64,000 bases of DNA from Amphiscolops sp. MND2022. Taxonomy: Eukaryota. The notes under the pieces are model-generated. The model made no database searches. It was not told the DNA's origin and saw nothing but the letters and a program-made list of their open reading frames with translations. The position numbers and the translations under genes are program-made. Numbering within the stretch: position 1 is the stretch's first letter; each line of letters opens with the position of its first letter. The stretch spans positions 1 to 64,000 of the forward strand of contig OZ076414.1 in assembly GCA_964187785.1 (NCBI GenBank), given 5' to 3'. This document shows positions 2,373 through 26,324 of the stretch, one piece after another.

Positions 2373-2513
2373 TGATAGGTATCACTAATATCACTAATAT
2401 CAATGAGAATTTTGATTCATTTTTTAGAATGTGGGAGAGGTGAAAAAGAGCCAGTCTTCTTGGTAGCCAGAGAAGATGGGATAACCCAAAAGCTGCGTGG
2501 AAGTTGTGACAAT

Positions 2514-2567
2514 AGTAGTAAAAGTACGTGGCATTATCGTTCAGAGTAAAGTGAGTAACCAAATATG
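2514..2567 (+). repeat. Left terminal inverted repeat of the Polinton (54 bp)
   Basis: Exact reverse complement of 20574-20627; begins with the AGTAGT trinucleotide repeat typical of protein-primed termini. Confidence 0.97.
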
Positions 2568-2587
2568 ATCATAAGGCCGACTCCAAA

Positions 2588-2680
2588 TGACGTCATGATT
2601 GCGACACAATGACATAACCGAATGCAAAAACATTTAGAATAACGTCACCAATCATAACATTTCATTGGTTGACGAAAAAG
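2588..2680. promoter_or_regulatory. CRE/ATF palindrome and CCAAT boxes just inside the left TIR
   Basis: TGACGTCA at 2588-2595 (within ATGACGTCAT), followed by CCAAT and ATTGG motifs; function inferred only. Confidence 0.35.
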
Positions 2681-2987
2681 AGCGACTAACAAAAGTGGAA
2701 TGGTTTTTTCCATTTAGCAAAGCAAAAACTGAGTCTAAAAGTAGTTAGTTTGCTGGGTGATAAAGTAGTACTTTGCACAAATCCTAATTATCTTGCCTTC
2801 TTCCTTCTAGTGGGATCTGTTGTTATCCAAGTTTGAGCCTCAGCATATCCTCAAAATTCTTTCCTAGTATTTGTGCAAGGGCTACTTTTTGGCAAAAAAA
2901 ACACTGATGGTTCAAAGCGAAAAGTGTAAATTATCTACATTTGTGTTTTCGTGAATAAAACTTGTTTGAGATTAAAGCACAAGATTA

Positions 2988-3194
2988 ATGGATTTTGAAA
3001 ATTTGAGCAATGAGTCTGACAGTCTTGCAACAGACAGCGGTTATGATTCAATGGTTTCATTTGACGAAGATGATGATGGTCTTATGCATCTCAACGTTGA
3101 GGTTGTAGAACTGTTTGAACGCTTGTTGTCATGGCTGGATCAGGTTCAACAAATTGACGACATTTTGCAAGACTGGATGATTGATGATGAGTAG
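2988..3194 (+). CDS. Small acidic Polinton protein (68 aa) with a DSGxxS motif
   Basis: ATG-initiated ORF, very D/E-rich, contains TDSGYDS. Confidence 0.6.
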   Translation: MDFENLSNESDSLATDSGYDSMVSFDEDDDGLMHLNVEVVELFERLLSWLDQVQQIDDILQDWMIDDE

Positions 3195-3296
3195 TATGTA
3201 TGATGATTTCGAAGAATCTGGAAAAGAAATAAAGTTATCATCAATTCTGGCTGAAAGACAAGAAAACCAAACTTTGAAGACTCTTTTAACCTTTTT

Positions 3297-4120
3297 TCAC
3301 GAATCTGACGGACTTTTTCTTTTCCGAGACGCTACTTCAAACTGTTGTGCAAGCGTTTTTGCAGTTTTCAAGTCTTCCATTGTTAGCAAGGGCTCTCCCG
3401 ACGAGTCAACCAGGTCAGGAAATAATTCAGCAAACGTGCAAGTTTTGCTTTGCGTTTTCTAAATAAAAGTAAAAGCTTTACAAACATTCGTGAATTGAAT
3501 ACTCACAGAGGACAAAAGTCAGCTACCATCACTTGTACCTCTAAATCTGAGGTTGTAGCTTTTGAAACTTTGTCTTCGAGCAGTTCCACTTTTTTCAGCA
3601 ATTCAAGCTCCTCCATGTTCAAATTATCAGTGTTCTAAAGCAAAATTAACCTTGTCCATGTCAGAGACTTTTACAGCAAGAAAAAGCAAAGATTACCTTT
3701 AAACTTTGTTCAAGATAGCTACTTGTGGATGGCTTGTTGTTACCATCAGCTTTATCATCCTCAAAGTACCATGCGACCTTGTTTTTATCATCCTCTATGA
3801 ACAATTTCTCCAAAAGGTTCCTTTCTGATTCATCAACTTGGTATTCCGCAGCATCGTCCGGAAACAACACTTTATTTTGTTTGTTACTTTTAGGGGCAGT
3901 ATTTTTTTGACTACCTGTGCTGTCATCACCAAGAGGTGTGTCTGAAACATCATTAATACAAACTCGCAATTGGACTATATTTCACCTCTGGTTGGATTAT
4001 GTTTAAATGTTTACCTAAACCAATAATTACTTGTCTCGTCCTCTTCTTCTCTTTGCGAAAAACAGTAGGAGGAACAGTTGTATTTTTTCGAGTCGGTGGT
4101 GTCCATTCATTGTTAACCAT
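3297..4120 (-). CDS. Predicted 4-exon orphan Polinton gene (202 aa): exons 4120-4015, 3941-3697, 3634-3539, 3458-3297
   Basis: Three GT-AG introns of 73, 62 and 80 nt join the fragments into one stop-free frame ending ...ASRKRKSPSDS*. The donor of intron 3 has an alternative in-phase position. Confidence 0.65.
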
Positions 4121-4212
4121 TTCTGAAAAGTTGATGAGCTTTCGTCGAAACTGAAAGAAAAAAAACAAATATATTCAAACAAGTTTTATAGAGAAAAAAC
4201 TTCAGAGTTATG

Positions 4213-7200
4213 TTATACATTTATTGGGGATGTTGTAACACCATCAGCATGCACAAATCGTTTGTAATAAAAATATGTTATAGACATTTTGTTTTGTTTA
4301 TATGTGAACATGTTTCCTCGGTAGTAGCGAAATCCCTTGTTAGTTCCTTCGTAGGGCACTTTGTTGAACAAGACAGATTTAAATCTTTCCAATGGCGACT
4401 CTAGATTTTTGTTGCTTCCCTTGAGAGCCATTTTCATCTTTTTGTTGTTTTCGTTAAATGCACAGTAGGTTTTGCTGTTGAGACAAATCATTTCCGTTCC
4501 TTTCCATTCAATTTTGAAAAGTCCAGGTGTCCTTTTATCCATTGCACCGTGTTCTTTACAGCAGCTTCGTGTTAGAAAATTCAGTTGAGCATTTGGTAGA
4601 TAGCAATCTTCTTCTTCATGATAATGCTTTGCATTTTCTTGCATTTGTGTCTTTGCAGCCTCAGTGAAACAATCGTAGAGGTCGTTTTCTGTCAAAGCCA
4701 TGTAGAAAGAGTCTGTGTCCATCTCTATAGCCCGAAAAGACCTTGGTCGCATAATTCTGCCGAGAAAGTCGTAACGAAACTCCAACATTCTTTGTTTTCC
4801 ATTGTTTAGTACTGTAAAACCAACGAGAATGGGTTCGTCGTGTACAATTTTTCTTTTAGCCATGTTAATTTCGTATATTTTTTCATCCACAATGTCATAG
4901 GTCCGGAATTTTGGAGAGTTGATTTTTTGATCAACTTTTCTTTCGTCAACAAAAAGCGTGTTTTGAAATTTTGATTTGTTTATAAGTTGAATGCCATATG
5001 CGCTGTTTCCAATAAGTTTGGATGTTTCTGCAATCACACTGAGCGACTTGTCTACATCTCCTCGACGCCTGTTTTCTGTTACAAAATCCAAAAAATCTTT
5101 GAAGGGTTGTGCTTTTTTGTAACAAAGAAACTGGTAGCATTTTGTAACAACCAAACCATGTTCCAAACACCACTTGATGTAGTCGGTAGTTAACATTATC
5201 TTTTCTCCAAAGTAGCTGGCGACAAGACATTTCCAACCGTTTTTCATCAAACCGAATTCTTTGGCATACTCTTGCATTTCCGCAGAAAGATGTTGCCTCT
5301 CGACAGTTGTATTTTTGAAGATGGGCGGAAGTTCTTTAAAGTGTTCCTTCAAGTGATCTGGAACGTGGATGTCAATTTCAGCTAATCCATAAACTTTTTC
5401 TTTCCAAACTGCATTGAGAAATGTCTCCAAAGTTGAAAACTTTTGTGGTAGACAATCAAGTTTTCTCACAAACTCTTTTATTTCCGGGTTTGTTTCTTTC
5501 AGCTGATTCCATTGACACTCCCATTGCTCAATCACACGATATCCTGCATTTAGAATAACTTCCTTACGCTCCTTGTCATTTTCACGTATTATCGCCGGTG
5601 TTTTTCCATGAATTAGAGGCGGCTGAAACATTTAGCAGTATGAAGCACTTCAAAAATAATGTATGATTCATTGTTTCAAAATTTAAATTTTGTCAACTAA
5701 CCAAACTCATACAGTCATGAGCGTGATAATAACATCCCATAAATTCCCAAACAGTTTTACAAGACACACAGATAGCATCGGGAACGAGTGTTCTAACTTG
5801 GTGGCGCAAATTTGTGAAACGACTGGTCACTGAACAACTTGGATTTTGGTCGTGATGATGTTTGGAGATAAAAGCAACATACTGTCGTTCGGCTTGTAAA
5901 AAATTACTTTTTTCGGAAACTAGAGCGTTGTCACTGTTGCAAACGTAATGAGTCAAAGGTCCAGTTGGCATGTTTCCACCAATAGCAGATAAATACAAAG
6001 CATTGGCATCATAACCAACTATTGACTTGACTTTTTCATCATTGATTGCAGTTTCATTAATTTTTTCGTAACGACTAAACACTATACTTGGTCCTCCAAC
6101 AATGTTGTTTCGAACGCTTTGATACAAATCCTTATGTTTATAATTGAACAAAAAAATTCCTTCGCCTTTGTTTGATCGATGTAAAATTTTGTTGGCGGCG
6201 CCACTGAGTGTTAGAGTTTCCTTCAGCAAGTCAATCGAGTGTTGTTGATAGAATTGGGACATTTTGGTCACAGCCTTGTGGAGGGGATAGACATCAAGGT
6301 TATTGTAATATTGTAAATAATCCATCATTGTTTGAAACCCTTCGTGGTCCCATGTTTGTTTAATGTCCTCATATACTTCCAAACCTGTCTTGGGTCTATT
6401 TGGATCGGTGAGGCTGCCTCCGTTCCGAACAAAACTGTTAATCTCGTTCTCCAAAACGTTTTCATTCTTCAGTGAGGAAAAGAATGCTTCGTAGGGTGGT
6501 AATGAAGGTTCTTGTAAAACTTCAAAACTGGTGAGATGTTCGTAAGGAAAGAAAAACTTGCTGACTTCGCTACCGTAGGCTTTCAAAAACTTGTCCAATG
6601 ATGTACCAGCTGCAACAAAATGACTACAGTCCATGAAGCGCAGGTTTGGTGTCGAAAGAAGTAGAAAGCGAGTATTTCGTTTAATACACTTGATAGACGA
6701 CAAGCTAACGAAACGCTGCAGAGACTTTAAAAGGTATGACTTTATCAAATTCAAATCGTAGAATCCACTATTGAAACCAACAATTGGTAGCTGGTCAATG
6801 TATTGTAAGAACTGTGTTCGTGTTCTTTTCAGGAATCTGTGCAATCTCTGCTGTGTGCTGGACACAGTAGTAGTAGCGGTAGTGGTTTCGTTTAGAGCAG
6901 CTTCTTCATCATCTGAGTGTGTGTTCTCTCCCATGGTGGTGTCATCTGGTTCAAAATCTAATAACATTTCATCAATTTTTTCTAGATAGGGTAAAAATTT
7001 TTGTCGCTGGTGAGAGATATTTTTGAGGGACAAGTCCATTAAATAGTCTACAAACTTGTCTACCAAAACGTTAGGGTCTTTCTCGACTAGCCACTTTGCA
7101 GCCGATTCGTCTGTTGTAATGTTTTGATATACTGCAACCGATACGGGAATATGTTGGTGAGTAAACTCCAATTTTTTCGTCTTGATGAAACAATCATCTT

Positions 7201-8695
7201 GGTTTGTATCAAATCCATTTGTTTGCTGTTGTGATGATGACTTTTGTCTCAAAATGGATTCAAAATCAAAAGTAACAAAAGACTTGTAGAATCTATGCTC
7301 ATGCGGAACACAAACATCAAACACGGTCTCTAGCGTCGTGAAAAAAGTGTCAGTGGGCGTGTATTTCCCACCTGGATAGGAGTGATCTGACTTTTCCGAG
7401 CATGACTTTAGATGGCGATTCAATTCAAATAGTCGTGAAAAGTACTGTTCACACTTGATGCACTTGAATCGTCGAAAAAATACGTTTAAATTTCGGATTA
7501 GACAAGTGTGATTATCGACTAGAAGCAGATCAACAAAGTTGGATTGCATGTCCATTTCCAACGACTTACTTCGGTATAACAATTCACCTTGTACTACATT
7601 ATTTACATCAAGTTCGGCTGAAAACACTCGGATGGCGCAAGAACAAAACTTTTCAACGTCTGGCAGGTCCGTCAACTCAATACCGGTAAAATCTTGAACG
7701 TTCTTTTGCACTCCGCGGATGTACATTTGAAAGAGCTCCATTGTTTTAGATTCCAATCCATGCATGGAGTTTTGTTGGAAGGCAGCCAAGGCACGAAATA
7801 CGCAAAGATTATCATTAAGCCTTCCGTTTGTAGATTTGTTGTAGGTAAGCGTCCACACACTCCTTGCGGATTTAATGAAATCCGGAATATCTATTACATC
7901 TTGATCGGTGCTGCCCATTGGCAGGCGTGACAAGTGTGTGGCATGTAGAGAGACGTTGGTTAAACAGAAGAAAGTCCATTTTGTGCTGTCGCGAAAGTTT
8001 GTAAAATTCTCGATGAAGTCAGTGCTGAAAATGTCTTGTTTTAACAGTTTGAATTGTTCAAAGTTCTCTACCAGCCTTGGTTTGGGTAGGACTGTTGTAT
8101 TGTCACTTGAGTAATAGTACCGATATTCGCCAGTTTCGTTGTTTGAGAGAATGTATCCAAAACTGACATTCATTTTGGATACCCTAGTTATTTTTGCAAA
8201 AGCTTCATCGAGTACATTACAAATATTATCAATCCCTTCATCCTTCAAAAGAAAATTGACAGTTGTTTGGTGGGGTAGCAAAACAATTTGATCTCCCATA
8301 ATATGTCTCTTTCTACGAACAAGTTCTTTCAGTGATTCATCGTCCCCAAATTGGGCATCGTTCAGTTGAGAATTTGGTGATTTTAACATTTCATGTTCGG
8401 TATGTGTATGTTGTTGCAACTTGAGCATTGTTGCAAAGGTTGAATCACAGTAGCCGCATTTGAAGTTTTTCTTTTTCACATGCTTCAGAGATTTATGAGT
8501 GTTGAGGTCTTGGCTACTTTTTGCAATGTAGTTGCACTGTCCACAGTGTAAATCATCCTTGTCATGTGTCTTTTCATGTCGGTTTCGATTGTATTTGCGC
8601 GAAAACTCTTTTCCACATTTACTGCAAACAAAAGTTACAACAGATTGCTGAGAAGTTGAAGGAGTTGCTGTAGTTGCGCCATCAGACGACTGCAT
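4213..8695 (-). CDS. pPolB: Protein-primed family B DNA polymerase with N-terminal C2H2 fingers, split by a 79-nt intron (5701-5623)
   Basis: ExoI FDFES, ExoII FNSGFYD, ExoIII YNNLD; polymerase motifs A YDANALY, B KLIGNSAYG and C MDTDS. ORFs 5693-8788 and 4213-5631 are out of frame but join in phase 0 through GTTAGT...TGTTTCAG. First ATG is at 8695. Confidence 0.95.
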
Positions 8696-8882
8696 CGTGA
8701 TGAATAAGGAGCAGCAGCACTTGCCGTCGTTCTTTCGGGAGAAATTCAATCTAAACAAGTGTCTGTTTGTTACTACAAATTCAAACAATTTTCAAAGTTT
8801 TCTGGTAACTCCTGAATTTGCTGTGGGTAAACATCAGACAAACAAGTTTTGTAACAAAAATAAGCAGTGCAAATATCACATC

Positions 8883-9284
8883 ATGCTTTATGGTTTTGAC
8901 GATATACAAAAAAAGTTGATGCATTTGAATTATGATTTTGAAAATGTAAATTGTCCCTACAGTTATTTCAAATTCTTTATTATTCTTTCGGAAAAAGTTG
9001 TTTGTATTCATGGAAACTTCCTGATGGAACCTTTGTTATTGGCTACCAGACACAATCGTATACATCGAAGCAAAGAATGTGTCACGAGTCTACTTTGGAG
9101 ACGGATTGGTCGGAAAAAAAGGAGACGACACTCACCAGCAACAACCAACAGAGGTCCACAACACACTATAGCGTCGCTGATGAATATTGTTCAAATGCAG
9201 ATTGTTGTCGTGAGTAGTCTATTGGAATTTTTGCAACAGAATTCTTCATCTGAAATTTCCACCAACACCACAATAACCGAGTAA
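8883..9284 (+). CDS. Hypothetical Polinton protein (~133 aa)
   Basis: ATG at 8883 within ORF 8697-9284; first ORF of the + strand gene array; no recognisable motif. Confidence 0.4.
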   Translation: MLYGFDDIQKKLMHLNYDFENVNCPYSYFKFFIILSEKVVCIHGNFLMEPLLLATRHNRIHRSKECVTSLLWRRIGRKKRRRHSPATTNRGPQHTIASLMNIVQMQIVVVSSLLEFLQQNSSSEISTNTTITE

Positions 9285-9397
9285 TTTTCCTTTGCAAGCC
9301 TACCTTGCCAATTCAAATCATTACCTTTGTTCACTACCTACAGTTCAGTTGTTATTTGCTGATTCAAAAAATTTTGACAAAATAAAAAATTTTCATC

Positions 9398-10027
9398 ATG
9401 GCATCAACTGCTGTCATCAACCCTGTTGATTGTAAAGTGTTGAAATGTTTTAAAGTTGAAGTTAGTACAAAACGTTACCTTTTAATTACCGTTAAAACCT
9501 ATCCGTCTTCTTCAGAAAGCTACACAAGTATTCAACTGTTCAAGTTAGATGAAGAGACAAAGGAATACACACCACAAAAATATTTGACTCTCAAGTTTCA
9601 AGAATTAAACAAAATTCCTTGGGACGACGTTTACACCAACGTTGTCAATGTCTTCGACTTCTCACTAGACGTTCGCATGCCCTACCACAAGAATGATATG
9701 GACTATTTTGACTTCATCTTTGATATTCAAGACTTTATCTCAAACAAATCGAGAGTCGTCAGAGTAGCTTCCAAGCGTTATCCTCAAGCTACCTACTTGT
9801 ACTTAAAACTGTTTATTCAACATCAAAAGCGCTGGAAAATGCAACAAACAATAGACATTTCTTGGATGGAGCTATCTCATTTATTGAACGTTGTCAAAGA
9901 GATTCAGAGCTACCCAAATGGAATACCTAAAGAAGGAAGTCCAATCACAGAGACTGGCTTATTTCGTCCAATCGCAACATTGACTAACCCAGAAATCACC
10001 AGCAGCGTCAATAGCAACAGCCATTAA
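9398..10027 (+). CDS. Protein with two tandem PC4-like (ssDNA-binding) repeats
   Basis: Internal duplication: KRYLLITVKTY..YTSIQLFK..LTLKFQELNKI versus KSRVVRVASKRY..YLYLKLF..IDISWMELSHL, resembling the PC4 strand-strand-strand-helix pattern. Confidence 0.55.
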   Translation: MASTAVINPVDCKVLKCFKVEVSTKRYLLITVKTYPSSSESYTSIQLFKLDEETKEYTPQKYLTLKFQELNKIPWDDVYTNVVNVFDFSLDVRMPYHKNDMDYFDFIFDIQDFISNKSRVVRVASKRYPQATYLYLKLFIQHQKRWKMQQTIDISWMELSHLLNVVKEIQSYPNGIPKEGSPITETGLFRPIATLTNPEITSSVNSNSH

Positions 10028-10087
10028 CAAATTTTTTGAGTGCTTCATTACCTCTTTTACTCTTACAGAATTTGGTTGCTTGCTAGC

Positions 10088-10693
10088 ATGATGGCTGATT
10101 TCAACTACATTATCACGTTTGTATTGGATGTGGAGTTTTTAGAAGTTGACGTAGTTAAAGAAATTAGTGTAACCACACCGTATCACTCTGTATCTTTATC
10201 ATTCAAACCTCCCAGACCATGGAAAGATCTAACCCGTGAAGAACAACTGGAATACAACAACAATAACAACACTCTCAATGTTCCGTGGGATGAAGGCGCT
10301 ATTGACTATAAGGAACTGAGGAACGCTGTATACACCCTCATTCCACCAGGAGTCATGAAGTATGCAAAAGGAGTGCAAAAGTGTGACTTTTTCTCTCGTT
10401 TTTTCCTTTTCAAAATTCACAATTTGGAAGACATGGGCTGCCCCGACGCCTCTGCAATCCAACATTTGATAAATAATACGGAGAACAACAACGACGACGA
10501 CGACGACAAGGAGAACAGGCCATTGTGTCCCAATTTTCCCAAATATCCCAATCATTATGAAAAATGTGCGGCCATCAATAGTAAGCTTTATCTCAAGTGG
10601 TTAGCCAATAAAATTAAAGAAGACCCTGCTGCTGCAGAAATGGCGCGAAAGACTTCCCCGCTGCGCAACAATGCAACACTCACACTCATGTAA
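10088..10693 (+). CDS. Putative DEDD/DnaQ-like nuclease (Polinton accessory gene)
   Basis: VLDVEF acidic motif, FKPP.PW, YAKG..K, NLEDMGCP, and C-terminal C..H..CA..N. Confidence 0.5.
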   Translation: MMADFNYIITFVLDVEFLEVDVVKEISVTTPYHSVSLSFKPPRPWKDLTREEQLEYNNNNNTLNVPWDEGAIDYKELRNAVYTLIPPGVMKYAKGVQKCDFFSRFFLFKIHNLEDMGCPDASAIQHLINNTENNNDDDDDKENRPLCPNFPKYPNHYEKCAAINSKLYLKWLANKIKEDPAAAEMARKTSPLRNNATLTLM

Positions 10694-10722
10694 TTATCAT
10701 CATCATTTGTTAAATTTGCAGC

Positions 10723-10986
10723 ATGACTGATCAGCCGGATCTTGCAGTGCAAGAGTTCGTTTTTGATGAGAATAACCAAGAACGCAAGCCTTGGACAATT
10801 TGCGGCAAGCCTATTCCACGGTCCGAAATTGTCTTTTTCAGTCAATTACTTGTCATTCTTATGGTTATCTCATTTTGCATTTTCAAACTTTCTGTATCAT
10901 CTTCAAACGATAAAGACAAGCCGGTTTGGATTGCCTTGCTGGCCAGTGCACTGGGATCTATTCTACCCCATCCGACACTGAAATGA
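10723..10986 (+). CDS. Small two-helix membrane protein
   Basis: Two hydrophobic segments (IVFFSQLLVILMVISFCIFKL; VWIALLASALGSILP); resembles small membrane proteins of Polinton-like viruses. Confidence 0.7.
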   Translation: MTDQPDLAVQEFVFDENNQERKPWTICGKPIPRSEIVFFSQLLVILMVISFCIFKLSVSSSNDKDKPVWIALLASALGSILPHPTLK

Positions 10987-11717
10987 ACAAGGTCATTCCC
11001 ACTGACAACCATGTGTTTATGTCTCTTGTTGGTCCATCCGGCTCTGGAAAGACTACTCTTTTGTATAAACTTTTAACATTGCCAGTGTTTCAACCAAGGT
11101 ACCAATCTGTAATTTTTTTCTATCAACATTATCAAGAAGCGTACGAAAAACTGAAGCGAGATGTTGCCGAAATTGAATTCATACAAGGACTAGACTTTGA
11201 TTTGATCAATCAATCATTTACACATGACGGAAAAAAACGCTTGCTAATTTTTGATGACTTTTCAGAGGAACTTTTAAAATCTAAAGATTTCACTCGGATT
11301 GCTACCGCTGGTAGACACTTGGGCTTGCATGTTTTGTATATTAAGCATAATTTATTTCATAAATCACCCATTGGAAGAGACGTAGAGTTGCAGTTGACTC
11401 ATATTGTGCTTTTTCAATCTCCCCGTGACATTAATCAAATTGAACGACTTGGGCAACAGTTGGGCAAGCAAAAATTTTTACCTCTATGCTATAAGGATGC
11501 CACATCCAAACCTTTTGGATTTCTCATGATTGATCTGTCACCCAAAACATTGGACATTTTACGATTTTGTACAAATTTGGAGCCAACAGTTTTCTATATA
11601 CCCAGTGAAAAGGCCCGCATTACAGAAATTGACGATGACTACACAACAAGTTATTACGCTGCAGCATTTCAAGAGTCTTTCACTGGCCGACCGGTTGGAC
11701 ATGTTGAAAAGATGTGA
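10983..11717 (+). CDS. A32/FtsK-like genome packaging ATPase
   Basis: Walker A GPSGSGKT, Walker B LLIFDD, conserved GRH and HNLF motifs. Confidence 0.95.
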   Translation: MNKVIPTDNHVFMSLVGPSGSGKTTLLYKLLTLPVFQPRYQSVIFFYQHYQEAYEKLKRDVAEIEFIQGLDFDLINQSFTHDGKKRLLIFDDFSEELLKSKDFTRIATAGRHLGLHVLYIKHNLFHKSPIGRDVELQLTHIVLFQSPRDINQIERLGQQLGKQKFLPLCYKDATSKPFGFLMIDLSPKTLDILRFCTNLEPTVFYIPSEKARITEIDDDYTTSYYAAAFQESFTGRPVGHVEKM

Positions 11718-11940
11718 GGACAATTTCATTGAGTTTCTGGCCGAATCAGTTGTAAACATTTTGCAAGGTGTAGTGCCCGGAATCAGGCGGAAAGACATTG
11801 AAAAGTTCAAGCCACAAATTGTGCGAATCATTTCGACCAAAGCAACTCTTGCGGAACAGCGGGCCATATTCACTTCCCGAAAGGGGCTCTTGTTGCTAGA
11901 TGTTATTATCGAGCATGTTATTCAATACTTTTTAAGTTAG
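11635..11940 (+). CDS. Small conserved Polinton protein downstream of the ATPase
   Basis: FIEFLAESVVNILQG...K..I.R pattern typical of this gene position; ATG at 11635. Confidence 0.6.
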   Translation: MTTQQVITLQHFKSLSLADRLDMLKRCEDNFIEFLAESVVNILQGVVPGIRRKDIEKFKPQIVRIISTKATLAEQRAIFTSRKGLLLLDVIIEHVIQYFLS

Positions 11941-11945
11941 TAGTA

Positions 11946-12670
11946 ATGGAATTGAAAAAATTTGTATTGATACCTTTTTCACAGTACAAGAGTCAATTGG
12001 CATCGAGTAGGCCTGTCAGCACAGTATTGTACGATTCAAAATTGACCAATGAGGAAAAGACTAAAATTTTGCCTACATTGGACCGAAAAAAAAGAGAGCT
12101 GCTGCTGTTGTAAGCACGCCTACCACCACACTGGTCACTGCTAGCACCGTACCTGCAAGTGGTAGTAGTAGTACAACAAAGACTATTGATCGTCAAAAAG
12201 AGGCAATTTTGTTGGATGTGGGTGGAAGCGAAACTACTCAAAGACGTAGCGCTTCGTTGTACGACAAAATTTTGTCTAATCCAAAAATAGAATTGACAAG
12301 TGAAGGTACAATTAAGCTGGAAAATTCCGACACAGACATTCCTCTCAGCACATTTTTATATAGATTACAGAATCCTTTTCCAAAAAGTAGTCCAGTAACA
12401 CGACAGTTTTTGGACATTGTTGAAAATGTGAAAATCCCCGAACACTTGATTGCAAATCAGTCTCTGTTGAAACATCAAAGAAGTAGACAAAATAAAGCTC
12501 CTCCTCCTCCTCTCGGTGGCTCGGACGACGACGCCGACGATGACGAAGAGGACTTTGAAAGCGTCGACGAAGGTGCAGGTAGCAGCAGCAGCAGCAGCAG
12601 GGCAACAAGCGGCAAAGAAAAGAAAGGAAAAGAATGGTATTCAGTCAAGGGCGAAAAGAAACAATTTTGA
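11946..12670 (+). CDS. Conserved Polinton protein split by a -1 frameshift at an A8 run (12086-12093)
   Basis: MELKKFVLIP...EEKTKIL (11946-12113) continues in the -1 frame without stops into ORF 12209-12670 (LYDKILSNPKIELTSEGTIKL...IPEHLIAN). Confidence 0.65.
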
Positions 12671-13598
12671 AAAAGACAGAGAAAAAAGGTTGTTGGAAAA
12701 GGCTTGGAAGAGTGGCTTCTCAGCGTATGGATCGCGCCAAAATTTGCAAAAAGCTACAAAATTGTCCGTGAAAAAAGTTGATGACTTTTTGCAAGGTAAA
12801 AACTCCTACACAAAATTTTTCATTCCCCAGCGTAGATCCTATCCCCGATTGACAACACTTGCTTTCGACATTAACGACATTTGGTGCATGGACGTTGCTT
12901 ACGTCGATAAAATTGCCATGCCAAATGATGGTGTAAAATTTTTACTAGTCTGTGTAGATGTCCTGTCACGCTACTTGAGAGTGGAACCACTGAAGCGACT
13001 GACATCTGTTGCTGTGAAAGATGGTCTAGTTGCCATGTTGAATAAATGCCCGACAGTACATCCCAACAAAATTTGGACCGATCAAGGTCGAGAGTTTGAG
13101 GGAGAATTTCGCAAGTTTTGCAAATTTGTTGGAATACACCAATATAATTCGTTCAGTGGTACAAAAGCAGCATTTGCTGAGCGAGCCATTAGAGCCTTGA
13201 AGGCCCAAATTGTTCGGTATCTCGAAGAGGAATGGATGTGGCGCTATATTGACAAGTTGCCAGACTTTGTAAAAACTCTCAATGACCGTGTGAATCGGTC
13301 AATTGGTATGGCACCGTCAAAGGTTGAGAAAAAGCATGTGCTCAAACTTATCGCACTTAAACAAAGGTCTGCAGTGATGAAAGAAAAAAAGGCCAAGTAC
13401 AAGGTGGGCGACCTTGTACGCATTGCTTCAAAGAATGTGCCCTTTAGAAAAGGATATCTACAACAGTTTACAAATGAAATTTTTTCAATTTCCACCGTGT
13501 TCTCCACTCATCCACCGTCTTACATTTTGCGCGATGAAAAAGGCCAAGAAATTCAGGGCAAATTTTACGAAGCTGAGATTATTAAAGTACTTAAGTGA
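12540..13598 (+). CDS. Retroviral-type (rve) DDE integrase
   Basis: Catalytic triad in WCMD / WTDQGREF / AERAIR; C-terminal YKVGDLVRI...FY..E. First ATG at 12540. Confidence 0.95.
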   Translation: MTKRTLKASTKVQVAAAAAAGQQAAKKRKEKNGIQSRAKRNNFEKDREKRLLEKAWKSGFSAYGSRQNLQKATKLSVKKVDDFLQGKNSYTKFFIPQRRSYPRLTTLAFDINDIWCMDVAYVDKIAMPNDGVKFLLVCVDVLSRYLRVEPLKRLTSVAVKDGLVAMLNKCPTVHPNKIWTDQGREFEGEFRKFCKFVGIHQYNSFSGTKAAFAERAIRALKAQIVRYLEEEWMWRYIDKLPDFVKTLNDRVNRSIGMAPSKVEKKHVLKLIALKQRSAVMKEKKAKYKVGDLVRIASKNVPFRKGYLQQFTNEIFSISTVFSTHPPSYILRDEKGQEIQGKFYEAEIIKVLK

Positions 13599-13640
13599 AA
13601 AGAATACATTTCACAAATCATTTTTTAGCTCTAATCGACA

Positions 13641-14105
13641 ATGAGTGGTTCATTCCACAAACAAAACCCATTAAACAATTATTACCGTGGTCCCGTTAGA
13701 CAAAGAGGAAGTGGCATTGGTTCTTTAGCCCTCAAAGTTGCACGTCATGCACTACCACTTTTGTCCAAATACGTGTTGCCTTCTGCCAAAAGAGTGGGAA
13801 AAGATTTTGCTTTGAATTTGTTGCCCGAAGTATTTGATGTTGTCACTGGTCGTGGTGGTGAACCAGCAACAACTTCAAGCATTAAAAAGGCAGTGAAGCG
13901 GGCAGCGGGGAAAACAGTAAAGAAACAATTGGGCACTGGTGGTGCAGCAAAAAAGAAGAGACGACGACAGTCAGTTGGAAAGAGTTCCAAGACCAAAAAC
14001 AGTCGCACAGCAAAAAAGGGCCGCAAAAAACAATCAGGAGGCAAAACAACAACAAAAAAGACTCAAAAACGCAAAAAGATTGACATTTTTCAAAACTTGC
14101 CTTGA
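13641..14105 (+). CDS. Basic pVII-like DNA-condensing core protein precursor
   Basis: YYRG..RQRGSGIGSL N-terminus and K/R-rich C-terminus; QxGxG/QxGG motifs. Confidence 0.75.
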   Translation: MSGSFHKQNPLNNYYRGPVRQRGSGIGSLALKVARHALPLLSKYVLPSAKRVGKDFALNLLPEVFDVVTGRGGEPATTSSIKKAVKRAAGKTVKKQLGTGGAAKKKRRRQSVGKSSKTKNSRTAKKGRKKQSGGKTTTKKTQKRKKIDIFQNLP

Positions 14106-14140
14106 CGGTCAATAACATTCGTAATATTGTTCTCAAAACA

Positions 14141-15442
14141 ATGACAACGACGACGGCGGCGCACATAATACCTAAACCGGCAACCCACTCTAGTCTGGAC
14201 ATTTTTTCTAAGCCAGAAGTGCTAGTGTCTTTTGACAATTCTTTTGAACAAGAAACGTTGCCAGTCACTGCACACGATGCACCAGTTTTTGAGTTTGTAC
14301 TCACCACTGATCGAAACATTTACTTGGATTTGCAAAGCGTCGAATTAAAGTTGGAGGCAAAAATTGGAAAGGGCGCCAATGGCAATACTAATTTGGAGAC
14401 GGAGTTGGCTGGAGGCAACACTGTAGCTAAAGCAACCGACAAAGTCAGCTTCATCAACAACACTCTACACTCCTTCTTTTCCAATTGCGACATTTTAATC
14501 AACAATGAAATTGTACACACGTCCAACAATTTGTATGCACAGAGAGCTTTTGTTGAAACGGAACTGTCCCACACACAGGGCTGTGCCACAACAAAGCTCA
14601 TTACGCAAGGCTACAACTTTGAGCCCGCCACCGGTGATATGCTTGCCCACCGAGAAACATGGACCTTAGGCTCCGCTTCAAAGACATTTTATGGAAAACT
14701 GGCGGTGGATTTCCTGGCATGTGATCAACTTCTCATTCCCAATTGTTCTATGCGAATTCGACTGACACGGAACAAGCCCGAATACTTGCTGCAAAGTGCT
14801 GTCACCAACCCTGCCTTCACCCCAAAAATTGAACGAGTGTCAATTTTTGCTCGTTACTACACTGTTGCAGAAAACTATCACGTCAATTTACAACGATCTC
14901 TACTCAAGTGGCCTGCTAGATACAACTATTTTGAAGTACGCAGCAAGACATTTGTGATTCCAAGGGACCAAAGTCATTTTATTCGTGAAGACATTTTCAA
15001 TGCAGAACCCATTAGACGCATGGTACTGGCCATGTGTCCCAACAATCAGTTTACTGGACGTTGGACAGACACTCCGCTCGCATTCCACAAACACAATTTG
15101 AAGAAAGTGCGAGTATTGCGGAATGGTGTACCAGTGGTGGAATATAGCACAAGTTCCAACACTCAACTGTACTTTAAGACTATTCAAAACCTCCATTTTG
15201 ATCAAGACGGTCCCTTAATCAAGTTGGACAATTATGAAAATCACTACTATCTAGTTTTCGACCTTACGTCCACACAACAGTGCAATCAAGAAATTTACTA
15301 CCCCGAAATTGTGGGAGCACCAATACGGATCGAGCTCGAATTTTCGACCAACACTAGCACGCCTTTGGAGCTGTTTGTGCTGGGAGAACGATTTACAACA
15401 GTTCAAATTGATCATACAGGAAAAGTGTTGAAACATGGATAG
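14141..15442 (+). CDS. Double jelly-roll major capsid protein
   Basis: SSLDIF..P, FINNTLHSFFSN.DI.IN, LIPNC.MRIRL and F.LT motifs; ~433 aa; located between the core protein and protease genes. Confidence 0.92.
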   Translation: MTTTTAAHIIPKPATHSSLDIFSKPEVLVSFDNSFEQETLPVTAHDAPVFEFVLTTDRNIYLDLQSVELKLEAKIGKGANGNTNLETELAGGNTVAKATDKVSFINNTLHSFFSNCDILINNEIVHTSNNLYAQRAFVETELSHTQGCATTKLITQGYNFEPATGDMLAHRETWTLGSASKTFYGKLAVDFLACDQLLIPNCSMRIRLTRNKPEYLLQSAVTNPAFTPKIERVSIFARYYTVAENYHVNLQRSLLKWPARYNYFEVRSKTFVIPRDQSHFIREDIFNAEPIRRMVLAMCPNNQFTGRWTDTPLAFHKHNLKKVRVLRNGVPVVEYSTSSNTQLYFKTIQNLHFDQDGPLIKLDNYENHYYLVFDLTSTQQCNQEIYYPEIVGAPIRIELEFSTNTSTPLELFVLGERFTTVQIDHTGKVLKHG

Positions 15443-15863
15443 TGCAGCCTTGCTACAAGTTATTTCCAAAAGTCCCGCACTAAAATATCGATACTTGGGT
15501 TGCTTCGACCCCAATACTTTCATTTTCCCAATGCCAATAGACACTTTTCAAATTGTAAACACCACTACAGACGTTGAGGGACATTGGATAACGTTGATCC
15601 GCTTATCCAACGGCTTTCACTATTTTGGAGATTCCCTGAAAGCAACAAGCTTGAATCAGTACCCAATGTTGTTTACCCGACTGCCACCACCGCCAGAACA
15701 GAAAAAGACAACAACATTATTTCTACCTTTGAACACTTCAATAAAGCAGGTCGATTCCTTGTGTGGTCTCTATTGTATTTATTTTGCATGGAACTTATTT
15801 GATAATACACCTAAAGTAACGAATGATTTTGAATTGTATCAATTGTTTTGTAATCTTTTATAG
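15435..15863 (+). CDS. Adenain-like cysteine protease
   Basis: IVNT...GHW, YFGDS and Q...SLCGLYC catalytic motifs. Confidence 0.92.
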   Translation: MDSAALLQVISKSPALKYRYLGCFDPNTFIFPMPIDTFQIVNTTTDVEGHWITLIRLSNGFHYFGDSLKATSLNQYPMLFTRLPPPPEQKKTTTLFLPLNTSIKQVDSLCGLYCIYFAWNLFDNTPKVTNDFELYQLFCNLL

Positions 15864-15897
15864 AAAAAAAAATGTTTGTAAAGAAAGTTTTTTTTTT

Positions 15898-16797
15898 TCA
15901 AACAGTAATTGCAGGCACATGTTTTTTACGAAAATGTAAATTTAAAACTACAAGTCCCAAACTGGTAAAGGGAATTAATTTTCCCTTCATATCTCGAATC
16001 TCAATCTGTATACTATTGAAATTATCCAAACAAACATTTCGATACTGCAAATTGGAAAAGGATCGGTTGTCGTAAGGGTATATGACAATCAAATCCTCAT
16101 TTTTCGTTCGTTGACGAAATGTGAAGGCACGTAAAAGTTGGTTCTTCACATTGCCCACGTTACTAAAGTCTACAATATCACTGTATACAAAAATTGTGTG
16201 AAAACGTGCGATATCACAAGGGTAGGGAGCAATGATTTGGTTGGCTTCACAGTACACAGCATCCGTTCCCAATCCCAAAATTTGAGCCAAGTCATCACTT
16301 TGAATTTTGAAGTATACACGGCTCTGTCCTTCTGTAGTTCCTTCAAACGTGAATGAAAGGTTCAAAGTTTCCTCGTTGTAAGCAAAGGTCATTGTCCTCT
16401 CCATGTTTGTAAAAGTAGCAATTTGAGAATTCATTGCGTCAATAATTTGACCAATTTCTGTGTAACAACCCTTTGGAATGTTAAAAGAACGATATTGATT
16501 CAAAAAGGGCACATCTGGATAACTATTTATAAGTTCCTTGCTGACAGTATCAGGTTTGTTTACAACAACGCGATATCGTTGAAGAGTCGGTGTAGGAATA
16601 TAGCCTAGCGTGAATTCACCGTCTGTGACATTGTATACTCGGTTTGGGAACGAAATGTCTGTGAGTGCAACTTCCCATTCACTGCCTCTGCCCAAATTGA
16701 TTGGATTTGACATAAAGTTTGAAAAAAATGCCAGAGTATTATTTGGATAAATGTCCAAACTTGCATTAGACAATAGATCAATATAAAAGGAAGTCAT
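15898..16797 (-). CDS. Minor capsid (penton-like single jelly-roll) protein
   Basis: FY..L.SNAS...YP.N, WEVAL.DISFP, FVYSDIV...VG...LLR and LHFRK motifs. Confidence 0.9.
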   Translation of the reverse strand: MTSFYIDLLSNASLDIYPNNTLAFFSNFMSNPINLGRGSEWEVALTDISFPNRVYNVTDGEFTLGYIPTPTLQRYRVVVNKPDTVSKELINSYPDVPFLNQYRSFNIPKGCYTEIGQIIDAMNSQIATFTNMERTMTFAYNEETLNLSFTFEGTTEGQSRVYFKIQSDDLAQILGLGTDAVYCEANQIIAPYPCDIARFHTIFVYSDIVDFSNVGNVKNQLLRAFTFRQRTKNEDLIVIYPYDNRSFSNLQYRNVCLDNFNSIQIEIRDMKGKLIPFTSLGLVVLNLHFRKKHVPAITV

Positions 16798-16854
16798 CTT
16801 TAGGGAACTGGATAGGAAACACAGAATTTGATTGAATGAGAGTCACTCACTCAT

Positions 16855-17499
16855 TCATTCATCTTCACTGCTGCTGCTGGAGCCAATCATCAGCTTTACC
16901 CTCTTTAGATTTTTCTTTTTTGGTTGGCGACAACATTTTTCGTCGTCGTCGACATCCGCCGATGCTATAGTTTCTGCGTTGCTATCTGTATTATCGGATA
17001 TCGACCAATAAGATCGTAAGGATTCTTCGTATTCTTGTGTTCCCAACTGATTCTCCGTAATGGGCACTAGCGTGTTTTCCAAACGATTGAACTCTCTTCT
17101 CAATTCCAGACTCAAACAACCTGGATGTGTGCACTCCATTTCTTTCCAGTCATACGTTTCCAACAACATCAAATCAACAGAGTATTGGCGGGGCAGTTGT
17201 GGCGGACTAGGAGCTGTCAAGTCAAAAACACTTTGGTTGTCAGTGTCACTTTCTCCTTGCTCGTCGTCGTCGTTGTCGTCGTCGTTCGATCTGAGCATTT
17301 TTTTTGCAGTATCAACTGTAACTTGAGCACTAATTAAGTGTAATAAATGAACCGGTAGGAGAAAAGACTCAACAATTTTCCATTCATCATTTGTTGCTGA
17401 GTTTTTCACTTCCTTTATTAGGATTGCCGACGCTCCGAAATGTGTCTTGTAGGCAAATATACGTTCGACGTCAATACGTTGTGTGAATATGTAAATCAT
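16855..17499 (-). CDS. Hypothetical acidic Polinton protein (~214 aa)
   Basis: Open ORF from the ATG at 17499; D/E/S-rich tracts; no family recognised. Confidence 0.55.
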   Translation of the reverse strand: MIYIFTQRIDVERIFAYKTHFGASAILIKEVKNSATNDEWKIVESFLLPVHLLHLISAQVTVDTAKKMLRSNDDDNDDDEQGESDTDNQSVFDLTAPSPPQLPRQYSVDLMLLETYDWKEMECTHPGCLSLELRREFNRLENTLVPITENQLGTQEYEESLRSYWSISDNTDSNAETIASADVDDDEKCCRQPKKKNLKRVKLMIGSSSSSEDE

Positions 17500-18349
17500 T
17501 GTTTCCAACAACAACAAAATTATTCTGAAAACAATAATGTTAAAACTACTGCAAAAAAAACAACAATCATTTTGTGTTAAGGAGATTCAGCAGTGACCAG
17601 TAGAATGGATGAGAGCTCCTTTCTTGAAGAAGCGTGTTTTTATTTGATGGGAAAAAGTTTATAAAAATTATACATTCTAATGCAAAAATTTTTGCAGTGT
17701 GGAAAAAGGGCAGAATTTGCTATGTTACGTTGATCATTGTGAATCTTGTATAGTTGTCGGGTGGTAAACAAGAGCTACTCTAACTGCTATTCTCAGTCAA
17801 TAAAGATGAAAACAAAAAAAAGTTTTGAAAAAAAAATTCAGAACAAAATATTGAGTGAACCCTAGACATGGGCACATCAAATTCGTCTAATTTTTCGTCC
17901 CGAATCTAAATTTCGCATCAAAACGGCATTTCTCGTAAAATTGGAGTTTTTCAAAATTTTTGCCCCATGGGGGGATTTTTTCCCTTTCGGAAAATAATTT
18001 TTCAAGAAGGTTTTTTTTCGTCTTTCCAATGATATATATGACGATGGGTGTTCATGATAGTCATTGACAAGTGAAATTTCGAGTTTTAAAATTGAAAAAA
18101 AAAGACTGAAACTAAGTTTTTCCGTGAGTCAAGACCATGCATTCATGTTTAAATTTTAATTCCAACCAGAATATGTCAATGAAAGCGCATTTCAGAGTTT
18201 TTCATTTTTATCCATGATAAGGGGTTGTTGACGTTCCAGTTTTAACGTTAAACAAAGTAGTAATTGATTATGTACAAAACTAGATTCAAATCCAAAAAGT
18301 GAGTCTTGAAGAATGTTACTGTTAAATGAAGAAAAGTACAACTTAGCTA

Positions 18350-19041
18350 TTAGTTGTTTTTGGGAGACGCCAATTGGAGAACATCGAGCAAAGTTCGTTC
18401 CAAAAACTGCCGAGTGTAGTGAAATTGGTCAGTCATGTCGACACCTCTGGTACGCATCTTGTGCACGTTCAAAGATTTGCACTTTTCGAGCTGTTTCTGC
18501 AAAACTTTATCGACCCTTTTTTTGTTCGAATTGGGAAGAAGTTGATTACGTCTCGCCAGACCAATCACTAGTTTGACACCTTTCGTTTTGCAAACTCTGT
18601 TCCATAGCATTAGTTTTTCCGTAAGGTCTTTAGGTGACAGTGTCGAAACACTATTGTTCCCTTAAACACATTGTTTCCCAATCAACTATCATTTTTTATC
18701 GCAAAAAAACTCAATTTTGTTGCTACGGGACAACAGGGTTAGGGTTAGGGTTAGGGTTAGGGTTAGGTTTGAAAAAAAAACAACTAACTTGGTGGCATTG
18801 TGAGTGAATTGTAGAGAATGTCGGGAAAGATAAAGACGAACTGACACCCTGGTCGAGAAAGGGCTCGGAACAACAAGGAGTCAAGTGTAGGTTTTGAAAA
18901 GTTTTGTTTAGAAGAGGAGGAGGAGTATTCATGACGACCGCCACTTTCGGCGAGAATTTGGATATGTTTATAATGAGATGAATCCTTAATGATTCTACAA
19001 AGATTTGAAGCACCAATAACAATCGCGTGCTTTATTTCCAT
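18350..19041 (-). CDS. Predicted two-exon SGNH/GDSL-like hydrolase (187 aa): exons 19041-18789 and 18660-18350
   Basis: Block I IVIGASN, block II SGG, block III LYNS, block V DQFH (DxxH). A phase-1 intron 18788-18661 (GTTAGT...TTTAAG) joins ORFs 18784-19125 and 18350-18610 in frame. Confidence 0.72.
18736..18767 (+). repeat. Interstitial telomeric repeat GGG(TTAGGG)4TTAGG
   Basis: Read directly from the sequence. Confidence 0.97.
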
Positions 19042-19151
19042 GAAACCTGAAAACAGATGATGTGGTATTTGAGAGTCAGAGCAGAATAGTTTTGGTACTA
19101 GAACAAATCGTGCAAGCACAGACAAAAACGAAAAACATGCAAATAATTATA

Positions 19152-19505
19152 TTAAAGATTGTTCTTTGTACAGTAGAGTTTGTAGGAACTATCTACACGT
19201 TTTTGGAGGGCCTGGAGGATACCCTTATCAAGGGTACCTTTCCTCCAGGCCTCCAGACATGCGCGCAGGAGCCCGCGCTCATGCTTTCTCATCGCCCAGA
19301 AGGCGAAAAGATCGAGCACGGGCTCCACTGTTACTCCTTTGATGTACGAGTGGATTCCCTGCAGCGAAAAGTTTGTGAACGTTAACATTTGAGAGGAAGT
19401 TTCAACGGCCAAAAGCTCTAGAAAACAAAGATTGAACAACCTACCTCGTCGCCGATCAACATGGTCAAAACGTCGCAGGTGTCCCTTGACACCTCCAAGA
19501 GACAT
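19152..19505 (-). CDS. Hypothetical Polinton ORF (117 aa), overlapping strong hairpins
   Basis: ATG-initiated ORF upstream of the SGNH gene; no motif. Confidence 0.35.
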   Translation of the reverse strand: MSLGGVKGHLRRFDHVDRRRGRLFNLCFLELLAVETSSQMLTFTNFSLQGIHSYIKGVTVEPVLDLFAFWAMRKHERGLLRACLEAWRKGTLDKGILQALQKRVDSSYKLYCTKNNL

Positions 19506-20573
19506 CCGGACCTGGGCCTCTGGTTGATGAGGCCCCAGGCGAAGTGATCTATTTTATCCAGTTCACTCCACAGAAGCATTTTTGATTTTTTAGTTTATGT
19601 GGGTATGTGTGGGTGAACTGAGGTTTTCAAAGTTTTGAGCACAGAATGAATTTTTGAGCTCGGTAGGCTCAACTCTTTTTTCAAGACTCCAAGCACCTCC
19701 TTCGGTTTCTTTCCAGTTTCACTTTTATCTGGGAAACATCAAAGATTTTAACCCAGGCGAAATTTCCATATCTAATCATTTGGAAACTCGGATAAATAAC
19801 CACATTCACTTTTTAGGGCCCATAAGACCCGGATCAAAGGCTCCGCTATCTTTTGAACCTGTTTTCAAAGTCTTGCAGGGTCCACCTTAATTCCTTTGAA
19901 ATTCGGAACCCACTAAATTTGAGTTGCCAAGTGATGAATCAAAGAAAAGACCGACACTCTGTTAATTGGCATTGTCTTTTCAGTTATAATTAACAAAAAA
20001 ATGTTGCCTTCACAATTCCAAAACAAATTAAAAGGCATTTTGATTGCTTTTTTTCCAAAAATTTAGCATTTTTTCCCGACATTTTCATGTTTTTTTCAGA
20101 CATTTTAGGTCATTTTGTCTCTTTACAGAATGTGAAAATTCGGTGTAAAAAGAAGCTGGGATGATTTCCATAAGCTTGCTGGAATAGTTAATGACTGTTT
20201 CCATTACGCAAATGAAGGCAATATCAGGGAAATTTGTTCCACAGCAATCACACTTCTAAAGAAAGGTAATATAATCTAAGAGCACATTCATTTCAAAGTT
20301 GCTAGATTAAAAGAATTTTTATTGATTCCATTTCCTTTCATCCCATCTGCGTTCCATTTCCATTCCTAACAAACCACTCCTTCCATTTTTATTACTTTCC
20401 AGCACGCCAAGGTAAGGAACTTTCCTTTCATTGCCTGAAATACGAACAAAAATTTATCGGGCCTGTATTTTGTTTTCGGATTTTGTTCGGCTCTCGGTGA
20501 GTATTTTCATATTCGGATACGTCATGTTCGTATCGCAAATATTACGTAACGTTTCAGAAAGTTTTGTGATCAC

Positions 20574-20627
20574 CATATTTGGTTACTCACTTTACTCTGA
20601 ACGATAATGCCACGTACTTTTACTACT
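20574..20627 (-). repeat. Right terminal inverted repeat of the Polinton (54 bp)
   Basis: Exact reverse complement of 2514-2567; followed by GACAAT. Confidence 0.97.
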
Positions 20628-23562: not shown

Positions 23563-23616
23563 TTCCTCCGGGTAAAGATTTTTTTTATTTTTTAAAAAAT
23601 TAAATTACTTTGTAAT

Positions 23617-25627: not shown

Positions 25628-26324
25628 CTGCGGGTGCTAGGAAGAGCAAGCTTCCTGCGTTCAAGCCATTTTCATAAGCCTCTCGTCGTAGGGCGGTGAT
25701 ATAAGCGGGCTCGCTGCCAGGCGTCGATCTCCGCATGTAACAGTTCACCTTCTCTTCTTTTATTTGATCTCTCGATTTGCCGCAAACCATGCAGCCTGTA
25801 TGCAAACGTTGGCTCACGTCCTGATACGGCTTGATGTTTTGTATGTGGTAAGACGCATGGAAAGTTCCAGAGGTAGACTGTATAAGCGGGGTGTCAATGC
25901 TTGGTCCCCTTTCATGATCTGGGGGAGACATTGGGGACTCTAGAACAGGCAGTACAGTTGCACAGAGCTCAACTTTTGATTTCCTTTGCCTTTTCGACGG
26001 AGCCATGCACATCTCCTTATTAAAATACTCGAATCCCAGTTTAGGTGTAGAGGGCGGAACAGGCTGGGCACAACTTGGTCCAGCTGCCATCTCGTCTACT
26101 AGTGCTTCTGTCGTCATCCCTCGTCCCGCGATGGGGATTGGAACTGCTTTCACCTCCCGCTCTATTCTTTCTATGATCGCTTCCGTATCTGTGGACCAGT
26201 CTGAGTCCCAGGAACTTGAGACTTCATTTTCACTATCGCTCGAAATGTAGATCACAGAATCTGCTGAACTTTCTGAGTCTTCTTCAAGATCGAAAAGCTT
26301 TTTAGCTAGATTATATCTTTGCAT
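25539..26324 (-). CDS. Accessory ORF (261 aa) running into the U3 of the 3' LTR
   Basis: Open ORF with an acidic S-rich N-terminus and a CMVCG motif; the last ~29 codons lie in the LTR. Confidence 0.6.
   Translation of the reverse strand: MQRYNLAKKLFDLEEDSESSADSVIYISSDSENEVSSSWDSDWSTDTEAIIERIEREVKAVPIPIAGRGMTTEALVDEMAAGPSCAQPVPPSTPKLGFEYFNKEMCMAPSKRQRKSKVELCATVLPVLESPMSPPDHERGPSIDTPLIQSTSGTFHASYHIQNIKPYQDVSQRLHTGCMVCGKSRDQIKEEKVNCYMRRSTPGSEPAYITALRREAYENGLNAGSLLFLAPAVSQAATCDGTRITTTAEGQEIAAGTLPTY

Follow-up and report, generated by a model that had tools for sequence, protein, structure and literature searches.

Two short reading frames lie near the right end of a Polinton in Amphiscolops sp. 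MND2022, and the question they raise is whether they are the two exons of one gene and whether that gene encodes an SGNH hydrolase. LINEs (in their ORF1s), Penelope-like elements, LTR elements and Terminons of rotifers, Helitrons and virophages have each acquired SGNH esterases independently, and such capture is already known in other mobile elements. Across the literature searched, supplements and Repbase entries aside, no report of an SGNH gene in an animal Polinton was found. If the case presented here is true, it extends SGNH capture to another element class and strengthens the view that lipid esterases are recruited again and again by mobile elements to handle membranes. The product would be small, soluble and assayable, and should Polinton virions ever be isolated, it could be sought in them. 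The locus also bears on genome annotation, given that ORF-based annotation misses spliced Polinton accessory genes. From the analysis of a 64,000-nt stretch of contig OZ076414.1 (hereafter the window), we conclude that the candidate is a real accessory gene, probably spliced and probably with a divergent SGNH fold.

The host element and its surroundings

The element that carries the candidate (Table 1) is a Polinton, as the initial annotation had proposed. Its ends are inverted arms of 59 nt (2514-2572 and 20569-20627) that are 97% complementary, its termini are of the AG type (AGTAGT...ACTACT) and a 6-bp target duplication, GACAAT, flanks both. Pfam identifies a retroviral-type integrase (rve, PF00665, E 1.5e-11) and an A32-type packaging ATPase (PF04665, E 4.7e-10), and long ORFs have the size and order expected for a protein-primed PolB, major and minor capsid proteins and a protease. 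The names polymerase, capsid and protease are tentative and go by motifs; these ORFs have no match in Pfam, and homologues exist in related Polinton loci. The protein collection searched contains many members of the family, with 167 in the major-capsid cluster and 178 in the cluster of the C-terminal polymerase part. The candidate gene lies near the right end of the element, on the minus strand, and is transcribed toward the element's centre.

Table 1 Features of the Polinton and of the candidate gene (positions in the window; exons, intron and acceptor as predicted).
Feature	Positions	Strand	Remarks
Polinton/Maverick element	2514..20627		18,114 bp; host of candidate gene
DNA polymerase gene intron	5623..5701	-	79 nt, phase 0; internal control
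Exon 2	18350..18660	-	311 nt, 102 full codons + stop; D-x-x-H motif (Asp162, His165)
Predicted intron, phase 1, GT-AG	18661..18788	-	128 nt; donor GTTAGTTG, acceptor TTTAAG
Telomere-type hexamer array, TTAGGG-type	18735..18767		5.5 copies inside candidate intron
Exon 1	18789..19041	-	253 nt, 84 codons + 1 nt; Ser12, Gly34, Asn78
Splice acceptor TTTTCAG	19041..19060, ending at 19047	-	5 nt before exon-1 ATG
Upstream two-exon ORF	19152..19579	-	exons 19579-19445, 19358-19152; intron 19444-19359

Frames abutting the left end of the Polinton (1134-2568, minus strand) carry what we take to be the reverse-transcriptase-like motifs of a LINE, and the Polinton seems to have inserted into this LINE. 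Further along the window, positions 23600-42400 hold a decayed element, presumably Ty3/gypsy-like by its motifs, whose end region recurs at 98% identity in direct as well as inverted orientation and which contains a GC-rich insert bearing long ORFs (27361-31314). A Tc1/mariner-like transposase remnant lies at 47288-48134 (plus strand). The stretch at 55500-64000 (minus strand) has a strong GC skew and looks like a decayed retroelement and not like mitochondrial DNA. The retroelements in the vicinity of the Polinton, together with the TTAGGG-type repeat, suggest an animal host.

Within the Polinton, short ORFs with acceptor- and donor-like sites follow the polymerase stop (4174-3620, minus strand) and are probably a further spliced gene. 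In the 70 nt before 6 of 17 ORF starts of the element (2988-19579) lies a YAG whose 12 preceding bases include nine or more pyrimidines, compared with 3 of 50 internal ATGs, a control that consists of coding DNA and is hence lenient; the excess could reflect leader splicing of an adenovirus-like kind or trans-splicing.

The intron, the relatives and the range of the gene

The start codon at 19041 (ATG, minus strand), the GT at 18788, the AG ending at 18661 and the stop ending at 18350 are all present, and the join of 18788 to 18661 gives two exons of 253 and 311 nt (Table 1) and a product of 187 aa. The unspliced reading of exon 1 stops immediately at the GTTAGTTG donor at 18788, and the frame of exon 2 is open from 18661 to its stop and is closed upstream by another stop. 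Among the 26 open donor/acceptor pairs found, 23 of which have a GT donor, the conserved end of exon 1 together with most of exon 2 is kept only by 18788/18661 (187 aa), 18784/18651 (185 aa) and 18788/18628 (176 aa). The second of these leaves an open product and is a weaker donor/acceptor pair. Acceptors at 18628 and beyond would delete a stretch retained in the relative P0103, and donors at 18841-18874 would delete the conserved F-P-D-x-L-x-N stretch; both were rejected, as was a second intron of 26 nt with a micro-exon, which is too short and has no support. Viewed against U2-type spliceosomal criteria, the candidate intron has GT...AG ends, a branch-like motif (TTGAT, with its A at 18682) and a position shared by relatives.

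Exon 1 has 28 homologous database entries, and 23 of them reach block III. The same Ser codon is the end point in 19 of these 23, including four entries at 53-64% identity, and four entries read through from exon 1 into a spacer with many F, L, I and V residues. As read from peptides, not DNA, and in entries that are related and so not independent events, the spacer of P0103, P0104 and P0106 (45-54% identity) opens with S-E or S-K, which fits a phase-1 GT donor (dipeptides compatible in this way make up 2% of background); the spacer start of P0105 is incompatible with such a donor. At the other end, P0103 has in-frame exon-2-like sequence directly after an I-G pair, which allows a TAG acceptor, and P0104 has the YAG-compatible V-G at the matching position; such pairs are common (14% of background), and it is the position that counts. 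In P0106 both halves lie in one frame, and its second part shares 50% identity with exon 2 across 58 residues (E 5e-14). A copy-specific lesion as the cause of the split was rejected, the split being common to the family.

The polymerase gene of the same element serves as an internal control. Within the element, the donor 8-mer of the candidate intron is found at only one other place, the polymerase intron. An unsplit relative of the polymerase, from L202 (1452 aa), aligns nearly end to end with both parts: its residues up to 975 cover the first part and those from 993 onward the second, which fits the polymerase intron within about three residues. The donor of the polymerase intron is also where 5 of the 15 listed entries of the N-terminal polymerase part end. 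The shared end point of the relatives, the read-through spacers and this control all back the proposed splice at 18788/18661. Judged from sequence, the candidate intron is very probably real, and the acceptor at 18661 is quite probably used in the family.

The polymerase intron (5701-5623, minus strand) is common to sister copies and absent from L202. Two related Polintons, L202 (1-14165) and L203 (1-11796), have an ATPase 56% identical to the one here and an unsplit polymerase, and their gene order differs from that of the present element, a minor-capsid-like gene lying between integrase and major capsid.

Exon 2 has nine close database entries, in addition to the C-terminal part of P0106. 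The key residues are widely retained: 25 of the 28 entries keep Ser and 22 of 23 keep Asn, Asp is present in all nine and His in seven of nine. The gene is present in the protein collection only as unspliced pieces, and its linkage to Polinton core genes is indirect, through entries that apparently share a contig. At least 12 of the 17 close exon-1 entries and at least 4 of the 9 exon-2 entries apparently share a contig with core-gene entries among those listed, these counts being lower bounds with up to 15 members listed per cluster, and one apparent contig carries exon 1, exon 2 and capsid entries. For the 11 more diverged exon-1 entries, no link to Polinton core genes was found among those listed. 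Likewise, in 11 loci of related Polintons, all of them incomplete and with an ATPase 51-59% identical, neither the exons nor the SGNH profile had a match (best E 0.39). Because the close entries link to core genes and the 11 partial related loci are without a match, we regard the candidate as an accessory gene of its own Polinton family.

Homologues longer than 147 aa were not found (another search spanned only lengths of at least 497 aa). No relatives of either exon were found in viral or JGI metagenome contigs, and none of the capsid or polymerase in viral contigs. Three of the database entries, P0101, P0123 and P0007, are rearranged sister copies, in which either the exon-1 start is fused to sequence matching 19957-19868 or the upstream ORF is deletion-fused to exon 1.

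An additional upstream exon had been suggested on the basis of an acceptor near 19047, and the acceptor is present in the sequence (TTTTCAG). Before the exon-1 start, the frame encodes L-F-S-G in this copy and likewise in the P0096 group, which is 64% identical. The two-exon ORF upstream encodes about 113 aa and has its own stop. Its scanned parts have no match in Pfam or PHROGs, and its first exon is 62% identical in P0007, where the reading frame continues through a similar spacer. By way of a phase-1 donor at 19237, this ORF could be spliced in frame to exon 1, which would add 87 residues for a total of 274 aa. The acceptor at 19047 could be the link to an upstream coding exon or belong to a 5' UTR intron, the latter being as likely because the upstream ORF has a stop of its own. 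Further possible exons extend up to about 19900 (minus strand; acceptor 19729), with in-frame stops in this copy.

Fold of the predicted product

The initial annotation read all four SGNH blocks, with the triad kept, in the joined protein, and this is only partly borne out. The triad residues Ser, Asp and His are present, Ser12 within GAS, and the spacing is close to that of bacterial SGNH domains. It is 66 residues from Ser to Asn and 84 from Asn to Asp; of 41 bacterial domains, the 27 whose motifs parsed have medians of 65 and 81. In block I, Ser12 follows a strand (5-9) and aligns to the Ser of GDS. The residue before it is Ala, as in most relatives (Thr in P0103 only), where SGNH structures usually carry Asp, Asn, Gln or Thr, according to the part of the review cited (PMC10792757). 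In block II, Gly34 comes after strand 2, 22 residues after Ser, and is invariant in 15 aligned rows; hhalign sets the bacterial block II further along. Block III keeps its usual spacing and has neither G-x-N-D nor any Gly or Asp around Asn78, which lies 6 residues past the predicted strand, at a place that hhalign aligns only with a gap of 4 residues. In block V, Asp162 and His165 align to the D-x-x-H of the profile before the last helix. With these departures, blocks I and III are atypical.

Profile comparison gave a weak, colinear match. With a custom profile of 41 bacterial SGNH domains, the X-joined read-through scored 18.3 in hhalign (E 0.022, 135 colinear columns), and 20.4 when entered as a single sequence (E 0.007), at a reported probability of 2-5%. 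Compared with the 18.3 of the joined query, the halves alone scored 13.7 and 14.3, the swapped order 14.1 and four alpha/beta control folds 10.6-14.1, and 60 column shuffles had a mean of 11.4 and a maximum of 17.6. In the global alignment GAS pairs with GDS and D-x-x-H with D-x-x-H. In hmmsearch the joined product obtained 1.4 bits, a score also reached by 4 of 500 shuffles and lower than the 2.0 bits of exon 2 by itself.

That neither half is recognizable alone holds for Pfam and PDB sequence searches and fails for the ESM Atlas, in which exon 2 alone reached GDSL clusters at ranks 2, 3 and 7 (0.92, 0.92 and 0.90; family shares 14-46%). Of the Atlas hits for exon 2 that carry a family, the top ten all belong to one GDSL-type family or clan, a result also reached by a third of shuffled proteins. 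For exon 1, unnamed and mostly viral clusters came first, and GDSL appeared only at 0.81-0.82. In Pfam neither half has a family at E <= 1, curated SGNH models (PF13472, PF00657 and their clan) matched neither half, and 16 aligned members gave only unrelated weak rows against family models. Sequence and profile searches of the PDB gave no convincing match and PHROGs only weak rows. Foldseek found no match in PDB and BFVD at E <= 0.001, a result that does not exclude the fold.

Whole SGNH domains have a flavodoxin-like fold with five strands; the model of exon 1 (pLDDT 61) is beta-alpha-beta-alpha-beta. Its top structural rows are generic alpha/beta proteins (Z 4.2-5.7), and lipase 3bzw (Z 4.1, rmsd 3.8, 59 aligned) and the esterase 4c1b (Z 4.0, rmsd 3.7, 63 aligned) are tied with many alpha/beta chains. 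The single-sequence model of exon 2 is all helix and unreliable (pLDDT 55); the predicted secondary structure of exon 2 is helix-strand-helix-strand-helix. On motif spacing, the weak profile match and language-model neighbours, the SGNH assignment is a likely one: the spliced product has a good chance of adopting the fold, and its being catalytically active is about a coin toss.

The parallel to the esterases of LINE ORF1 proteins, drawn at the outset, proves apt. The candidate has the same order of Ser, Gly, Asn and Asp-x-x-His as the ZfL2-1 ORF1p esterase (4c1b), and three of its measures equal those of that enzyme: Ser-to-Gly 22 (S143-G165), Asn-to-Asp 84 (N195-D279) and a C-terminal half of 103 residues (half-domain 200-302), as given in the section cited of PMC3905857. 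Ser-to-Asn (66 versus 52) and Gly-to-Asn (44 versus 30) differ. The exon-1 model aligns to 4c1b residues 133-200, which are the N-terminal half, and the candidate intron falls 7 residues after Asn, compared with 5-6 for the half-domain hinge of ZfL2-1. Both proteins are basic and both are encoded by mobile elements, the candidate in a DNA virus-like element and ZfL2-1 in a retroelement ORF1. Unlike ZfL2-1, the candidate has Ala before Ser, and the H191 (strand 3)/S228 (strand 4) pair of the ZfL2-1 class has no counterpart in it: going by predicted-strand offsets, not a structure, Asp lies four residues before Asn and the strand-4 segment is without Ser. SGNH domains related to ZfL2-1 occur in CR1, L2, RTEX and Penelope elements, and the ZfL2-1 esterase shows charge-driven binding to acidic liposomes with slow turnover, both as described in part of PMC3905857.

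The 187-aa product has 30 Lys+Arg and 14 Asp+Glu. It contains no hydrophobic or transmembrane segment (best 19-residue hydropathy 0.94) and no signal peptide, predicted strand 1 beginning at residue 5. Given its basic charge, its pI of about 10 and the lack of a hydrophobic segment, the product as modelled would be neither secreted nor anchored. Viral haemagglutinin-esterases are SGNH-type, secreted or membrane-anchored glycoproteins of enveloped RNA viruses, whereas the modelled product has neither secretion signal nor anchor; the suggested likeness to them is therefore unsupported, and receptor destruction was rejected as a role of the 187-aa product.

Proposed function and rival readings

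Known systems provide several points of comparison. Stand-alone SGNH genes captured by mobile elements, as in the candidate's case, are described in the cited parts of work on rotifer Vesta LTR elements and Terminons, which carry GDSL/SGNH ORFs (PMC5408684, PMC6431247), and on fish Helitrons, which carry the SGNH gene texim (PMC4021074). For the rotifer genes a membrane role has been proposed, as a hypothesis (PMC5408684, PMC6431247). These carriers are of another element class than Polintons and are likened to the candidate by description. In Polinton-class elements, lipolytic genes include PLA2X in adintoviruses (PMC8502044), lipase-3 in Mavirus and OLV (PMC3671162), a virion-borne putative lipase of the alpha/beta-hydrolase type in PgVV (10.1101/2022.07.28.501842) and the SGNH hydrolases noted in wastewater virophages (PMC13768754). 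As far as the cited portions of these sources go, such genes resemble the candidate in coding for a small lipid-ester hydrolase of a non-enveloped dsDNA element with a proposed aid to entry, and differ from it in having PLA2 or alpha/beta-hydrolase folds or in being SGNH genes of protist virophages. Nematode Mavericks carry intron-bearing cargo, wasp and krma, next to the terminal repeat (10.1101/2022.07.12.499685, in part), which is like the candidate in being an accessory gene with an intron beside a terminal repeat. That cargo consists of proteases and kinases and the nematode core genes are intronless, whereas the candidate's element has a spliced polymerase.

In the reading that we favour, the accessory gene would be transcribed toward the centre of the element and spliced by the host spliceosome at the phase-1 intron, giving a soluble, basic protein of 187 aa, or a longer one with upstream exons. 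This protein would adopt an SGNH fold with a Ser12-His165-Asp162 triad and with Gly34 and Asn78 at the oxyanion hole, bind acidic membranes by charge and slowly hydrolyse lipid acyl esters. The esterase would aid a non-enveloped particle or a replication complex in crossing or docking on host membranes. The membrane role is hypothetical and drawn by analogy, because ZfL2-1 binds acidic liposomes and Polinton-class viruses carry lipolytic genes. For the account as a whole, a spliced gene of a Polinton family for a membrane-binding SGNH esterase, we see even chances. In a bolder version, which is very unlikely, the membrane-penetration enzyme of this Polinton lineage would be an SGNH esterase borne by the particle in place of a PLA2 or alpha/beta lipase, with the hinge intron as a splice switch. 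In its splice-switch part, the stop inside the donor could set the whole enzyme against an N-terminal half that pairs with it or blocks it.

The atypical blocks I and III, the high pI and the loss of His in 2 of 9 entries would also suit an SGNH fold with little or no catalysis, a basic nucleic-acid- or membrane-binding scaffold like the OSK domain of Oskar, and non-catalytic SGNH domains are known (PMC10792757; the Athena-L GDSL derivatives, PMC5408684; both as described in part). However, the five key residues stand at canonical spacing here and are mostly retained in relatives, Ser and Asn also at 53-64% identity, and OSK is entirely without the triad (PMC10792757); we consider such a scaffold unlikely. 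A more radical doubt is that the product is a spliced alpha/beta protein of another family and that its SGNH motifs are coincidental. This agrees with the lack of a significant family or PDB sequence match and with the generic alpha/beta proteins in the top rows of the exon-1 model, but the colinear match from GDS to D-x-x-H beats the four alpha/beta controls and all 60 shuffles, the motif spacing agrees with SGNH, and the ten best Atlas family hits for exon 2 are GDSL-type (as are those of a third of shuffles), which makes coincidence quite improbable. An active SGNH enzyme could, on the other hand, be cargo that acts on host molecules, deacylating lipids, glycans or proteins, with no part in a particle. 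Models for this are, in the parts cited, the intron-bearing nematode Maverick cargo (10.1101/2022.07.12.499685), which the candidate resembles in its intron and its place near the terminal repeat, and texim in Helitrons (PMC4021074). The lack of a match in the 11 partial loci of related Polintons and of a link between the diverged homologues and the listed core-gene entries would fit it too. Yet those 11 loci are incomplete, the core polymerase of the family also has an intron, so that an intron does not mark recent capture, and no full-length or named cellular homologue was found among 1.84 billion representatives (14 hits). We give host-directed cargo only a small chance.

A last alternative concerns this copy and is compatible with the other readings: the gene would be real in the family and mis-spliced here at a TAG acceptor at 18723, which would yield a 97-aa product without the Asp/His half. 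The hexamer array gives rise to five CTAAC motifs 16-40 nt before 18723, and the first AG downstream of them is that TAG, which has a pyrimidine-rich run, whereas the proposed acceptor at 18661 is AAG with a purine-rich run. The array may hence favour the rival acceptor in this copy. However, TTGAT lies 21 nt before 18661 with no AG between, so that 18661 is its first downstream AG, and the two exons have open frames and match their closest sister entries at 93-99% identity. We regard mis-splicing as rather unlikely and retain 18661 as the acceptor of the favoured reading. In P0105 the spacer is 10 codons shorter, consistent with an absence of hexamers there. The array itself (18735-18767) is an interstitial telomere-type hexamer array within the intron of a mobile element.
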